The notes below the pieces were generated by a model that was not told the DNA's origin, did no database searches, and saw nothing but the letters and a program-made list of their open reading frames with translations. Shown piece by piece: positions 3,262 to 43,571 of a stretch of DNA of 44,640 nucleotides. A program made the translations under genes and the position numbers. Source of the DNA: an uncultured Candidatus Saccharibacteria bacterium (GTDB lineage Bacteria; Patescibacteriota; Minisyncoccia; Sungbacterales; HO2-52-23); contig CAYJWH010000002.1 in the NCBI GenBank assembly GCA_964373875.1, forward strand, positions 1 through 44,640, given 5' to 3'. Numbering within the stretch: position 1 is the first letter of the stretch; each line of letters begins with the position of its first letter.

Positions 3262-4838
3262 TACAATTTTTTAAAATCTGCCAGTGCCTTTTTCAGAGCT
3301 TCTTCAACATCTTGCGGTAATTCGCCGGTTTCGCGGATTTTATCAAGAACTGCTTTTCGATGCATTTTTTCCAGATAATCCAAAAGTTTAGGTGCTTTGG
3401 TCTCTATTTCACTAGCGGGCATGTCATCAAGATATCCGTTTGTTCCGGCGTAGATCAAAACTACCTGTTTTTCAAAAGATACAGGAGTAAGTTCCGGCTG
3501 TTTTAGAAGTTCGGTAAGAACTTTGCCACGTTCAAGCCGTTTTCTGGTTGATTCATCAAGATCCGAAGCGAATTGGGCAAAAGCGGCAAGCTCTCGATAT
3601 TGCGCGAGTTCAAGACGCAGGCGTCCCGCGACTTTTTTCATGGCCTTGGTTTGCGCGGCTGAACCCACGCGCGATACCGAGAGTCCGACATTTACCGCCG
3701 GCCTGATACCCTGATAAAAAAGTTCCGGCTCAAGATAAATTTGCCCGTCAGTGATGGAAATTACATTGGTAGGAATATATGCCGACACGTCTCCGAGCTG
3801 AGTTTCAATAATCGGAAGCGCGGTCAGCGATCCTCCGCCATTTTCTTTATTTAATTTTGCAGCTCGCTCCAAAAGACGAGAATGCAGATAAAAAATGTCC
3901 CCGGGATAGGCCTCACGTCCGGGAGGACGACGCAGAAGCAAAGAAAGTTCGCGATAGGCCCAGGCGTGCTTGGAAAGGTCGTCGTAAATCACGAGCGCGT
4001 CTTTTCCCTGCGACATAAAATATTCTCCAATGGCTGTCGCCGCGTAGGGCGCTATATACCATAGAGTAGCCGGAATGGACGCGGGGGCGGATACTACTAT
4101 AGTGTAGTCCATTGCTCCGTGCTCTTTGAGAGTAGCTACTATTTTGGCAACCTTGGATTCTTTTTGGCCAATAGCCACATAAATGCATATAGGAATCCGG
4201 CCCTTGTGCTGATCACGGCCTTGATTAATAATCGTGTCAATCACAATAGAAGTTTTTCCAATTTGTCGATCTCCGATTATAAGCTCCCGCTGTCCACGCC
4301 CGATCGGAATCATAGAATCTATGGCTTTGATGCCGGTATGCAAGGGGGTGTTTACAGGTTCGCGCGCGGTTACTGAAGGCGCCAGGCGTTCTACCGGAAA
4401 ATAAACCCGCGGTGAGCTTGTCGAATCCGGTTCTTTTGAATTGGCGGAAAAAATCGGGCCGCGTCCATCTATTGGATTTCCCAAGGGATCCACTACTCTG
4501 CCGATCATTTCTTCTCCTACGCGGACAGAAAGCACCCGTCCGGTGGGCTTGACCACGTCTCCCTCTTTTACTTTCAAGTAATCACCGAGGATGATCGCGC
4601 CGATCGTGTCTTCCTCAAGATTAAAAGCAATGCCCTGCACGGGGCCAGTATCTCCGCCCGAGGCGGATCCGCCACTGGCGGAAAACTCAAGCATTTCCTG
4701 CGAGGCGGCTCCTGCAAGGCCGTAAATTTTGGCAATGCCGTCCCCGACTTCAAGAACATGGCCGATCTTTTCGGCTTTGATTTCCCTTTTGAAACCCTCA
4801 ATTTCTTTCTTTAAATTTTCAAGTATATAGTCGGGCAT
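3261..4838 (-). CDS. atpA: F1 ATP synthase alpha subunit
   Basis: 525 aa with Walker [10 protein letters not shown]. Conserved blocks [23 protein letters not shown] and PGREAYPGD are present. Confidence 0.97.
4654..4681. repeat. Imperfect 28-nt palindrome (core GGCGGATCCGCC) in frame inside atpA
   Basis: CCGCC-CGA-GGCGGATCCGCC-ACT-GGCGG. It encodes [10 protein letters not shown], which is extra relative to the canonical alpha N-domain. Confidence 0.6.
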
Positions 4839-40242: not shown

Positions 40243-40326
40243 GGGGACGTGGTGGAATGGCAGACACGTACGGTTCAGGGCCGTATGCCGCAAGGCGTGA
40301 GAGTTCAACTCTCTCCGTCCCCACCA
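40243..40326 (+). tRNA. tRNA-Leu (anticodon CAG), CCA encoded
   Basis: Acceptor GGGGACG/CGTCCCC; anticodon stem TACGG/CCGTA with loop TTCAGGG; long variable arm TGCCGCAAGGCGT; T arm GAGAG-TTCAACT-CTCTC; discriminator A plus CCA. Confidence 0.9.
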
Positions 40327-40387
40327 AGACAAAACTCTTTTTATTATTAATTAACTAAACAATTGTTGCGTAATCAACCAAATAAAT

Positions 40388-42172
40388 ATGGCACCAAATA
40401 GAACGAGGAGGCGTATGCCTATCCGCGCGAGTCACCATCCCCTGCGGCTGGGACCGAGTTTGGCTCGACTAGTACCTCCACTACATAAAGAGACCCCCTT
40501 AGAAAAGGGCGTACTTAAATTTATTCCTCTTGGAGGCTGCGGCGAGGTCACTCGCAGTATGTACGTATATGAATATGGAGACGACATAGTAATTGTTGAT
40601 ATGGGATTGCAATGGCCGGACGAGGATATGCCGGGCATTGACTATTTAATCCCCAATGTTGAATACCTCAAGCCAAAACGCAAAAACATCAGGGGTATAA
40701 TAATAACCCACGGACATTATGACCACATGGGCGCAATCCCTCACCTCCTCGACCCCTTGGGCAATCCGCCGATTTTCGCGACAGCCCTAACCCGCGGCAT
40801 GATTCTTAAAAGGCACGAGGATTTTCGCGAATCGCCGAGGCCCAAAATTGAAATCGTCACACCGGAGTCAACGCTTACCTTGGGAGATTTCCGGATAGAA
40901 TTTTTTCATGTAAACCACAATATTCCCGACTCGGTGGGGGTTGTCCTAAAAACTCCGGAGCACACTGCCGTCCATACCGGAGATTTTAAATTTGATCATC
41001 GGCCGGTAAATGAGCGTCCGGCAGATATCCCCCGGCTTTCCGCGCTCGGAAAAGACGGGGTAACCTTGCTTGTCTCCGAAAGTACTGACGCGGAAATGCC
41101 TGGACATCAGATTTCGGAAACCGAAGTCCAAGACTCCCTGGAAGAAGTCTTTAAAGTCGCCCAGGGCAGAATCATTGCCGCTACTTTTGCTTCTCTCTTG
41201 ACGCGTATCCAGCAGCTTATTTGGCTCTCGGAAAAATACAACCGGAAAGTAGCCATTGAAGGATACAGCATGAAACAAAATGTGGCTGTCGCGCAGGAAC
41301 TCGGCTACCTTAAAATCAAAAAAGGAACTCTTATTGATGCCAAAGAAATTCACCGCTATAAAGACAGGGAGATAACTATTTGCTGCACCGGAGCGCAGGG
41401 AGAAGATCACGCGGTTATGATGCGGATTGCCAATAACGAACACCGCAATATTTCTCTAGAAACCACCGACTCGATTATCTTTTCTTCTTCCGTAATTCCG
41501 GGAAATGAAGCGACAGTGCAACGTCTTAAAGATGTTCTCTATAAACGGGCACACAAAGTTTATCACGTGGCCACCATGGATATTCATGCCGGAGGGCACG
41601 CCAAACAGGAAGAACTTAAACAAATGATTCAGTTGATAAAACCCAAGTACCTTATCCCCATTCACGGAAATTATTTTATGTTGAAACTCCACACCGAACT
41701 TGCGGAAGAAGCCGGAATCTCCAAGCAAAACGCCATAATAGCCGAAGACGGAGAGATCGTAGCCATAAGTTCGGAAGGGATCCGCAAACTTAAAGAGAAA
41801 GCCCCTACTGATTATGTTATGGTTGACGGACTTGGAGTTGGAGACATAAAAGAGGTTGTGCTTCGGGATCGCCAGCATCTGGCAGAGGACGGAATATTTG
41901 TTATTATAACTATAGTTGACTCAAAAACGGGCAAGGTGAAAACTAGTCCAGATATCATCTCTCGCGGATTTATTTATCTTAAAGAATCACAGGATCTCTT
42001 GAAAGAAGTACGCCACAAAGCTCGTCAGATTGTAGAGGATATAACTGTCGCCCATCCGCATCCCATCAACTGGACGCACATCAAAGACAATTTGCGAGAA
42101 AAAATAGGCCAGTTCTTGTTTTCAAGGACGCAAAGACGACCAATGGTGCTACCCGTGGTCATTGAGGTATAG
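40388..42172 (+). CDS. rnj: Ribonuclease J (beta-CASP metallo-beta-lactamase)
   Basis: FIPLGGCGEVTRSMYVYEYGDDIVIVDMG and motif HGHYDHMGA. The size and C-terminal domain are typical. The true start may be internal (for example the ATG at 40415), because the first ~35 aa look like an extension. Confidence 0.9.
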   Translation: MAPNRTRRRMPIRASHHPLRLGPSLARLVPPLHKETPLEKGVLKFIPLGGCGEVTRSMYVYEYGDDIVIVDMGLQWPDEDMPGIDYLIPNVEYLKPKRKNIRGIIITHGHYDHMGAIPHLLDPLGNPPIFATALTRGMILKRHEDFRESPRPKIEIVTPESTLTLGDFRIEFFHVNHNIPDSVGVVLKTPEHTAVHTGDFKFDHRPVNERPADIPRLSALGKDGVTLLVSESTDAEMPGHQISETEVQDSLEEVFKVAQGRIIAATFASLLTRIQQLIWLSEKYNRKVAIEGYSMKQNVAVAQELGYLKIKKGTLIDAKEIHRYKDREITICCTGAQGEDHAVMMRIANNEHRNISLETTDSIIFSSSVIPGNEATVQRLKDVLYKRAHKVYHVATMDIHAGGHAKQEELKQMIQLIKPKYLIPIHGNYFMLKLHTELAEEAGISKQNAIIAEDGEIVAISSEGIRKLKEKAPTDYVMVDGLGVGDIKEVVLRDRQHLAEDGIFVIITIVDSKTGKVKTSPDIISRGFIYLKESQDLLKEVRHKARQIVEDITVAHPHPINWTHIKDNLREKIGQFLFSRTQRRPMVLPVVIEV

Positions 42173-42245
42173 CGAAGGCCTACTTGCCCCGTGCCAACGC
42201 GAAGCTTTGGCGGCGGGGTGGTACTTCCCGTGGTCATTGAAGTGT

Positions 42246-42268
42246 AAAAAAAAGCGGCTTAGACCGCT
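42246..42268 (-). terminator. Intrinsic terminator of the 87-aa minus-strand ORF
   Basis: On the minus strand: AGCGG-TCTAAG-CCGCT followed by T7. Confidence 0.6.
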
Positions 42269-42279
42269 CCGGTTGAAAA

Positions 42280-42543
42280 TTAATCAGGCTTATTGGAATC
42301 AAACTTACAATTAGTCCTAACCGCTATATTGATCCGGGCCATAACTCTAGCAATGATCTCGCGCGTCAGGCCTGGCATCATTTCATCTGAAACTGTAACG
42401 GTGACATCAGTCGCCGCAAGGGCGGCACGCAATACTTCATCAAGCTTTACTGCCACCCTCCAATCATCTGCAGTAAGATCCGGATAAAGATGTTTAGCCA
42501 ACATTTCAGGATCTAGGTGAGTCAATTTGATCGCATAGTCCAT
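42280..42543 (-). CDS. Hypothetical 87-aa protein
   Basis: ORF followed by a terminator. I recognise no family. Confidence 0.5.
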   Translation of the reverse strand: MDYAIKLTHLDPEMLAKHLYPDLTADDWRVAVKLDEVLRAALAATDVTVTVSDEMMPGLTREIIARVMARINIAVRTNCKFDSNKPD

Positions 42544-42584: not shown

Positions 42585-43571
42585 ATGAATAAAAAGCAAA
42601 CACTTTTAAGCGGAATTGCTCCCTCGGGCAATCTGCATATCGGTAACTATTTAGGGGCGCTCAAACAATGGGTGGATCTCCAAAAAGACTACACGGTTTT
42701 TGCCATGGTTGCCGATTTGCACGCGATTACCGTTCCCCAAGATCCCAAAATACTCCATGAAAAAACACTCGAAGTCGCAAAGATTATGGTGGCCGGCGGC
42801 ATTGACCCTGAAAAATCAGTTGTCTTTTTGCAATCGCATGTTCCGGCCCACGTCGAACTTGGCTGGATTTTGAATACGCTCACTCCGGTTGGAGAATTAG
42901 AGCGGATGACACAATTTAAAGAGAAAAAAGAAAAATCCGGAGTTCTCGCCGGCCTATTGAACTATCCTTGGCTTATGGCCGCAGATATTCTTCTATACCA
43001 AGCTGATGTGGTACCCGTAGGAGACGACCAAAACCAGCACCTTGAACTAGCTCGCACGCTGGCAAGAAAATTCAATAACAAGTTTGGTGGAAATACTTTT
43101 AAGGAACCTCAAGCATTTATAGATAATGACATCAGGAGAATCATGGCCCTTGATGACCCCTCTCAAAAGATGTCAAAATCAGCAGAAAGTAATTACAACT
43201 ACATTGCTATCCTCGATCCGGAGGAGGAAATTCGTAAAAAAATAAAAGCAGCTGTGACAAGTTCAGAACCGGGAATCAGATTTAATGCCCTAACCCATCC
43301 TGCTGAGTTGAACCTTCTAAACATTTACAGCTCATTTTCCGGAATTCCGACAAACGAGTTAACACAAATGTTTTCTGCCAAAGGGCACGCAGAATTTAAA
43401 GAGTCACTCGCCGAACTGATTGTGGAAAAGCTCAAGCCAATTCAGGATAAATATAAGGAGATATCTGAAGGCAAAATTGAGGATATTTTAAAGGACGGGG
43501 CAAAGCGAGCATCGGAAATGGCCGAAAAAACCCTCCGAGATACCAAAGAAAAAATGGGATTTGTACTATAA
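42585..43571 (+). CDS. trpS: Tryptophanyl-tRNA synthetase
   Basis: 328 aa with SGI.PSG.LHIGNYLGA (HIGH motif), GDDQ.QH.EL.R, and KMSKS. Confidence 0.96.
   Translation: MNKKQTLLSGIAPSGNLHIGNYLGALKQWVDLQKDYTVFAMVADLHAITVPQDPKILHEKTLEVAKIMVAGGIDPEKSVVFLQSHVPAHVELGWILNTLTPVGELERMTQFKEKKEKSGVLAGLLNYPWLMAADILLYQADVVPVGDDQNQHLELARTLARKFNNKFGGNTFKEPQAFIDNDIRRIMALDDPSQKMSKSAESNYNYIAILDPEEEIRKKIKAAVTSSEPGIRFNALTHPAELNLLNIYSSFSGIPTNELTQMFSAKGHAEFKESLAELIVEKLKPIQDKYKEISEGKIEDILKDGAKRASEMAEKTLRDTKEKMGFVL

Follow-up and report, generated by a model that had tools for sequence, protein, structure and literature searches.

In Escherichia coli, the prophage e14 and phage 21 occupy icd, a conserved essential gene that is completed by a copy of its end borne on the element, and the displaced end remains on the far side. 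For e14, the duplicated icd' segment is 163 bp and a conservative residue change follows excision (PMC6379469). We describe here a much smaller arrangement of similar form at the 3' end of rnj, the gene for RNase J, in a 44,640-nt stretch of DNA from an uncultured Candidatus Saccharibacteria bacterium (the window; positions 1 to 44,640 of contig CAYJWH010000002.1, assembly GCA_964373875.1). The last nine codons and the stop of this gene recur 75 nt downstream, and we propose, at a probability of roughly two in three, that a 75-nt non-autonomous mobile cassette inserted near the end of rnj, bringing a replacement tail and leaving the resident tail as a relic. The upstream and downstream copies are referred to below as tail 1 and tail 2, respectively. 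The 714-kb genome that holds the window is designated G000; other G labels denote genomes of the class sample, and L labels denote loci or assemblies that were compared.

The rnj locus and icd have several features in common. In both, homologous but non-identical copies of a gene end lie as direct repeats around the element in the manner of attL and attR; at rnj these have an identical 14-nt core, and tail 1 completes the reading frame. They differ in scale and in equipment: e14 and phage 21 are 15-40 kb prophages with their own integrase and a duplication of ~160 bp, whereas the rnj insert is 75 nt long, encodes nothing, duplicates 29-30 nt, ends in a hairpin like those of repetitive extragenic palindromic (REP) sequences and has no associated integrase. 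No site-specific recombinase was found in the element or in a related autonomous element at the site.

The hairpin itself is comparable to REP/REPIN sequences and their REP-associated tyrosine transposases (RAYTs), since both families consist of short, GC-rich, multi-copy and mostly extragenic hairpins, dispersed through the genome, that keep a conserved foot while their stems vary and co-vary. A GTAG or CGTC tag and clustering around the RAYT gene are typical of classical REPs, whereas the rnj hairpin lacks such a terminal tag and has a CCCCGT foot instead. In this genome, no RAYT gene with copies of the rnj hairpin on its flanks was found; the Y1 genes are flanked by other hairpins. One member of the rnj hairpin family, moreover, lies in frame inside atpD, unlike the mostly extragenic REPs. 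To our knowledge, REPs neither carry coding sequence nor target the end of a gene. The rnj hairpin also resembles the sub-terminal hairpins of IS200/IS605 elements; these, like the insertions at rnj, produce no ordinary target duplication and show a strong site preference (PMC3333891, PMC3733652, PMC3116915). A miniature of the IS200/IS605 type would be consistent with the fixed CCNA / TGGT junction observed here, as well as with the Y1 genes found at the same site in two other genomes (G296 and G350).

The palindromic elements of Rickettsia and the Correia elements of Neisseria are likewise small palindromic mobile DNA tolerated in or beside essential genes. These add translated residues to the protein or modify the end of the gene, whereas the protein encoded by rnj is exactly unchanged, its native tail apparently having been brought by the element. 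Finally, homology-facilitated illegitimate recombination joins foreign DNA through homology at one end and illegitimately at the other, and both donor and recipient forms of a segment may end up in series (PMC3240628). It predicts scattered junctions, whereas those described below fall on the same nucleotide in several families. A non-exhaustive search of the literature yielded no description of an rnj tail-cassette arrangement.

A 75-nt insertion at the 3' end of rnj

The rnj open reading frame (ORF) occupies 40388..42172 on the plus strand, inclusive of tail 1 and its TAG, with a start at 40388 or at 40415, the latter being the start called in other assemblies (585 aa). Its product contains the Pfam domains Lactamase_B, RNase_J_b_CASP, RMMBL and RNase_J_C. 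Tail 1 (ATGGTGCTACCCGTGGTCATTGAGGTATAG, 42143..42172, plus strand) encodes MVLPVVIEV and forms the working end of the gene; its codons, preceded by CCA, are ATG GTG CTA CCC GTG GTC ATT GAG GTA TAG. Consistent with the original prediction, this nine-codon tail and stop are duplicated 75 nt further on (copy 2, GTGGTACTTCCCGTGGTCATTGAAGTGTAA, 42218-42247) as GTG GTA CTT CCC GTG GTC ATT GAA GTG TAA, and the frame past the TAG stays open for 24 codons. The copies differ at six sites (1, 6, 9, 24, 27 and 30): five are third positions, four of them synonymous and one exchanging TAG for TAA, and the first base (A/G) accounts for the remaining site. The longest identical core is 14 nt (CCCGTGGTCATTGA), with differences on both sides of it. 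A repeat finder listed the pair as family D15 (86% identity, 75-nt spacing), and a scan of the entire genome for imperfect 27-nt direct repeats 33-300 nt apart returned no other case of its kind, indicating that the tail pair is not a chance repeat.

The spacer had been described as 45 nt, GC-rich and partly palindromic. It is better divided into a 14-nt linker between the TAG and the hairpin (CGAAGGCCTACTTG, 42173..42186, plus strand) and a 32-nt GC-clamped hairpin (CCCCGTGCCAACGCGAAGCTTTGGCGGCGGGG, 42187..42218, plus strand), the last G of which (42218) is at the same time base 1 of copy 2. The real second tail thus begins at TGG (42219), directly against the 3' foot of the hairpin; we write this joint as GGGG/TGG. 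Tail 2 (TGGTACTTCCCGTGGTCATTGAAGTGTAA, 42219..42247, plus strand) is the displaced resident end, now non-coding, and is still joined to its ancestral terminator, an A-run and hairpin (GCGGCTTAGACCGC, 42248..42270) that serves as intrinsic terminator of the minus-strand gene orf87. The terminator-like site of orf87 extends from 42270 to 42251 on the minus strand, on which the A-run reads as a T-tract. The inserted unit, 42144..42218 on the plus strand, begins one base into the Met codon.

Comparison of rnj 3' ends in related genomes, a check that had been suggested alongside the original prediction, revealed the corresponding empty site. The nearest relatives in a large protein collection fell into one 90% cluster. 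Across rnj, L161 is 86.5% identical to the window at the nucleotide level and has the order rnj, convergent 87-aa ORF, trpS; the same gene order is present in L160 and L162, at ~80% nucleotide identity. In all three, AAAAAGCGG.TTA..CCGCT comes immediately after the only tail present. In L161 the single tail stands immediately before AAAAAGCGGTTTAGGCCGCTCC, the orthologue of the sequence after copy 2, and by BLAST it (4730-4756) aligns to both copies in the window. Since the relatives' single tail adjoins the terminator that follows tail 2 in the window, the insertion of the 75 nt took place in this species' lineage. Empty sites with a single gene end were likewise apparent on comparing G030 with G059 and G060, and G055 with G056.

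Orthology of the context is marked by orf87 (42280..42543, minus strand), a lineage-specific gene of 87 aa that is convergent with rnj and has no Pfam match. Its orthologues are 78% identical in L161 and 42-44% identical in L160 and L162. Only the nearest relatives have it in the interval from rnj to trpS; in farther relatives trpS, the usual next gene, directly follows rnj. In the window trpS, for tryptophanyl-tRNA synthetase, is at 42585..43571 on the plus strand (tRNA-synt_1b, E = 2.3e-73). As a probe, orf87 had no match in the metagenome or genome contig collections, and an exact-tail scan found no close relative among the species representatives.

According to the explanation that we propose, the cassette would consist of its own copy of the last nine rnj codons with a TAG, the 14-nt linker and the 32-nt REP-like hairpin, and would have entered after the first base of the Met codon with which the nine-codon tail opens. 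With a full replacement tail supplied in frame by the cassette, RNase J would be translated unchanged and would stop at the cassette TAG, while the resident tail, pushed 75 nt downstream, would persist as an untranslated relic on its original terminator. Before the insertion joined them, the two tails would each have been functional gene ends evolving in separate genomes, which would explain why they differ only at synonymous sites. The earlier suggestion that both copies have been read as protein would thus hold in substance, albeit in different genomes rather than together in this one. That of an element insertion with a long target duplication, present in only some genomes of the population, fared similarly: the empty site and the dispersed hairpin in the spacer support insertion, but the upstream copy appears to have come with the element instead of arising as a literal target duplication, and the insert was not polymorphic among the three same-species assemblies available, all of which carry it.

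Polarity of the tails and recurrence across lineages

We asked which tail is the newcomer by comparing G059, which also carries two tails, with G030, an insertion-free congener. The rnj gene of G030 ends in ATT GCG GTA TAA (Ile-Ala-Val). The truncated downstream tail of G059, ATT GCG GTG TAA, retains this genus-specific Ile-Ala-Val and is followed by the same downstream flank as in G030, whereas its upstream tail encodes Ile-Glu-Val and is succeeded by the linker and hairpin. Since the displaced tail keeps the residue specific to the genus, tail 2 is the resident and tail 1 the import.

A step in similarity leads to the same assignment. In a register-checked comparison of the 90 nt (30 codons) upstream of tail 1, G000 matched G059 and G060, which belong to a different family, at 48/90 and 46/90 positions, respectively (51-53%), and synonymous third positions were equal at 3/16 and 3/17. 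Within tail 1, third positions agreed at 8/10 in each case, and the next 20 non-coding bases agreed at 17/20 for G059 and 16/20 for G060. This step, which is absent from G030, was significant (P < 1e-4), and the linker is conserved in the cassettes of both genomes (CGGCGGCCCACTTG in G059, CGCCGGCCGACTTG in G060). Because similarity rises exactly at tail 1, we conclude that a horizontally shared unit comprises tail 1 with its stop, the linker and the foot of the hairpin. Taken together, these comparisons demonstrate, at the level of sequence, that tail 1 came with the cassette and that tail 2 is the displaced resident end. Patterns for the left junction had no match in metagenome or viral contigs, and no donor context was identified there.

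To gauge how widely the arrangement recurs, a degenerate pattern for the rnj tail was run, for the rnj end only, against 401 genomes that sample part of the class, 262 of which bear the tail; a reversed pattern served as the control. Two or three tails on one contig were found in 15 of the 262, while the control returned zero everywhere. Within the order, the degenerate pattern identified two tails in G056 and G060. Small cassettes have a common layout: tail 1 and its stop, a linker, a CCCCG...CGGGG hairpin, and tail 2 starting exactly from TGG. The full layout, with the GGGG/TGG junction, is present in G056, G060, G120, G301 and G304; G368 has a variant foot, and G059 a truncated tail 2. This architecture therefore recurs in at least seven other genomes of five families. 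The exact short-hairpin junction pattern was present in four families, with no occurrence in the control, and the junction lies after CCNA and before TGGT in seven genomes. In the tail pairs of G120 and G304, 7 third positions differ and there are zero first- or second-position changes, a pattern that is not the decay of a non-coding copy.

Larger inserts of 355-1227 nt, which carry cargo, also lie between two rnj tails. In G296 and G350 the cargo includes genes for Y1 transposases (Y1_Tnp, 44.2 and 29.5 bits against a Pfam cut-off of 23), and in G146 it encodes a DUF378 protein. G413 (L208, G413:C5) has three rnj tails in series, between which are genes for a ParE-type toxin and a DUF84 nucleoside triphosphatase. 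In G062 (L197, G062:C4), a 274-codon partial copy of the 3' half of rnj follows the intact gene. We infer that the unit is mobile as a discrete element, through a process that is site-specific. Y1 (IS200/RAYT-type) single-strand transposases are the leading candidate mobilisers, because Y1 genes sit between two rnj tails in two of these genomes.

A wider generalization can be entertained tentatively, at somewhat below even odds: that bacteria of the candidate phyla radiation harbor miniature tail-swapping cassettes as a class of their own, with the 3' end of rnj as their dedicated target. Such cassettes would be hairpin-ended, would carry the last nine codons and the stop, would insert at A/TGG (between the A and the TGG), and would spread between families, mobilised in trans by Y1 transposases. 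The coding tail would then serve as a universal landing pad, much as tRNA genes do for genomic islands.

Alternative explanations for the second tail

The two-tail structure is not an assembly artefact. Collapse of two strain variants of the rnj end in series, as had been suggested, could be imagined for a metagenome-assembled scaffold set with visible scaffolding artefacts: perfect 55-nt repeats 155 nt apart flank runs of 100 N in G000 at C1:30169, C8:8850, C10:4879, C18:9995 and C2:44586-44640, the last coinciding with the end of the window. We rejected these as biological repeats; they mark unclosed scaffold gaps at which the flanking contigs overlap by 55 nt (k = 55), indicating that 55 was the final k of the assembler that produced this metagenome-assembled genome. 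Nevertheless, the identical 75-nt structure was recovered in three independent per-run Logan assemblies (L157, L158 and L159), built with another assembler, one of which is a distinct strain (L158; 4 mismatches in 3.6 kb, 99.9% identical, plus a different rnj 5' end). Moreover, the copies share at most 14 identical bases, well under any k used, and unrelated genomes have the same architecture, leaving collapse with a negligible probability. We regard it as very improbable that tail 2 functions in this genome, whether by read-through of the TAG, giving a 25-residue extension with the same nine last residues, or as a translated GTG-started mini-ORF (VVLPVVIEV). The frame between the copies is open, GTG opens tail 2 in all small cassettes and tail 2 is still coding-like. 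However, the RNase_J_C profile is matched over 1-102 of 102 and the match ends at residue 594, the last before the TAG; the C-terminus in all family relatives examined is ...RRPMV[LI]PV[VI]IEV followed directly by the stop. TAG terminates 63/258 long open frames in the genome, and its tRNA set includes none with a CUA anticodon. Given a domain that is complete at the TAG, the frequent use of TAG as a stop and the lack of a suppressor tRNA, read-through at rnj is neither needed nor supported, contrary to a possibility raised in the original prediction; nor is this a case of programmed recoding, in which a stop is reassigned and the extension is required. Against the mini-ORF, the GTG is a by-product of the GGGG/TGG joint, tail 2 is truncated in G059 and, as judged by eye, the spacers of G060 and G056 are not consistently open in the frame of tail 2, and no Shine-Dalgarno spacing was noticed before the GTG, which the G-run directly abuts. 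Duplication in place, by which a pair of identical 29-30-nt copies (a long target duplication) arose through hairpin insertion or replication slippage and later diverged, the coding copy being limited to synonymous changes, is structurally the simplest alternative, since it requires no more than 45 nt of new sequence and each copy adjoins an orthologous flank; the C11 sister of the hairpin, furthermore, has an ordinary 4-bp duplication, CTTG. We nonetheless find it improbable. The ordinary duplications of the hairpin family are 3-4 bp, and we know of no transposase that makes 30-bp duplications here. The all-synonymous pattern has a P of about 0.01-0.1 under this model, and neutral decay cannot produce the third-position-only differences in G120 and G304. 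Tail 1 and its linker are, in addition, near-identical to the cassettes of another family, and the Glu and Ala of the two G059 tails match the cassette and resident types, respectively.

The principal rival dispenses with a dedicated element. In this model, DNA from a related strain (rnj, linker and hairpin) was imported by homology-facilitated illegitimate recombination, with the left crossover in rnj and the right end joined at TGG microhomology beside the hairpin, so that donor and resident tails came to lie in series. The process is documented in bacteria (PMC3240628), and diverged alleles do recombine at rnj, as indicated by the foreign rnj 5' end of L158; some dispersed copies of the hairpin also precede TGG. 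Two further observations favor this model and at the same time weigh against the cassette. The rnj hairpins of G120, G301 and G304 each belong to their lineage's own subfamily, which fits repeated local events better than a single spreading cassette, and the duplicated length in the larger inserts varies from 9 to 274 codons, which would suit integration driven by homology better than a fixed attachment site. Other points likewise count against the cassette: no recombinase or transposase is linked to the rnj hairpin in this genome; the linker is common to G000, G059 and G060 only; the left boundary of the cassette rests on two inter-family comparisons; the second-tail pattern demands coding-like sequence, so that decayed tails are under-sampled; and the window alone separates its synonymous-only pattern from a duplicate-then-decay model no better than the P value given above. 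We still judge import by illegitimate recombination to be unlikely, if less so than duplication in place. It does not predict that the junction falls on the same nucleotide (GGGG/TGG) in at least six lineages and five families, a coincidence that selection cannot explain because tail 2 lies past the stop. Inter-family similarity starts sharply at tail 1, and a donor tract upstream of copy 1 was looked for and none was found. Finally, an inter-family identity of 50% is too low for a homologous left crossover. On balance, insertion of a cassette that carried its own gene end probably accounts for the locus.

If the cassette explanation is true, the bring-your-own-gene-end strategy of large prophages and islands would be reducible to ~75 bases without a gene of its own, and the end of an essential, conserved gene in tiny streamlined genomes would be a place where mobile DNA, including transposases, toxin genes and small cargo, lands repeatedly. 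The target sequence and hairpin would provide a concrete, testable handle on DNA mobility in uncultivated bacteria. For annotation, it would explain coding-like relics behind stops that are otherwise mistaken for read-through, recoding or assembly errors.

The hairpin family and other repeats

The resemblance of the spacer to a dispersed-repeat family, which the original prediction had pointed out, was confirmed genome-wide. The pattern GCCCCGT...CGGGG occurs in 11 copies in G000, compared with 2 for the reversed-pattern control, and in 13, 15 and 10 copies in G120, G301 and G304, respectively. The window holds one other family member, at 1879-1908, and no copy of the rnj hairpin within 3 mismatches. 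The hairpin folds at -19.1 kcal/mol versus -12.3 +/- 2.6 for shuffles; the fold of the whole region is ordinary (z = -1.0), and no Rfam family matched in the region. Family members are single hairpins that fold far under shuffled controls, with a foot of the form (CTYG)CCCCGT...RCGGGG and inner stems that vary in sequence yet pair. Some have GTAG within the stem, not as a terminal tag. The closest sisters of the rnj hairpin are those on C11 and C24, and all three sit between convergent genes. CTTG is duplicated on both flanks of the C11 copy, is present on the left only of the rnj copy and is absent from the C24 copy, the hairpin arms acting as inverted repeats. A 16-mer scan of the genome contig collection for the hairpin returned chance matches only, in high-GC genomes. 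The sole family-level match outside G000, in G051, lies inside a gene and was rejected as chance. We also considered, and discarded, the notion that repeat, spacer and repeat (30, 45 and 30 nt) represent a CRISPR-like mini-array: the repeat is a gene end and the spacer a dispersed hairpin.

Two Y1 (IS200-like) transposase genes are present in G000, at C3:26365-27060 and C21:2667-3380, both on the minus strand. Each is associated with three copies of its own 22-23-nt hairpin (CTATAGAGGTTTAGCCTCTATAG and TTGAAGTCGGACTTCAA), one on either flank and one inside the coding sequence at an equivalent position. They were rejected as partners of the rnj hairpin, as the hairpins that flank them are different ones, CTATAGAGG... 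(C3) and TTGAAGTC... (C21). The genome has one tyrosine recombinase, located away from rnj. The 75-nt insert encodes no recombinase, and the larger inserts between rnj tails carry Y1 transposases, not integrases.

An ARAGORN call of tRNA-Stop(tta) (G000 C27:8135-8209) was likewise rejected as a suppressor. Its anticodon stem is shifted by one base; in the correct register it has the canonical loop CTTTTAA and represents tRNA-Lys(UUU), which is otherwise missing.

The family member at 1879-1908 (GCCCCGTATCGTACTTGCTCTGGTGCGGGG) is an in-frame part of an AtpD-like gene (minus-strand ORF 527-1969), close to its start, and encodes about ten additional residues: ...VDVEFEE[[10 protein letters not shown]]QGKLPAIYD. 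The C11 copy (G000 C11:9700-9790) is one of three GC-rich hairpins stacked where two genes converge. Its flanks resemble pieces of the rnj tail (CGTGGTCTTTG on the left, TGGTGCTCCCCG on the right), and the right flank, TGGTGCTCCCCG, is identical to the start of tail 1 in G060. It may represent an ectopic copy of the cassette, although the numbers are small.

In L158, positions 1-256, aligned with 40267-40487 of the window, form a foreign rnj 5' end with an N-terminal extension (MTPTRTIPKPAYAGRD...), at ~76% identity and with indels. A fragment from a different sample, P0126, is similar to it, and rnj in this strain is a recombination mosaic.

A second family resembles miniature inverted-repeat transposable elements: its members are ~80-110 nt, have terminal inverted repeats (CCCCGTGCCACAAC) and are flanked by 3-4-bp duplications (CGAG, CATG, CATA, TTG). 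They are found in G000 at C1:45594-45700, C3:12855, C4:7038, C6:24086, C24:9127-9230, C37:5087-5170 and C41:3101-3210, and have a start in common with the rnj hairpin (CCCCGTGCC). Lastly, C10:13659-13810 of G000 contains a tandem pair of 76-nt hairpin elements (CCCCACRCCAAACGAGCAC...GTGCTCG.TCTGGTGTGGGG) that are identical at 26/27 positions in the stretch compared.

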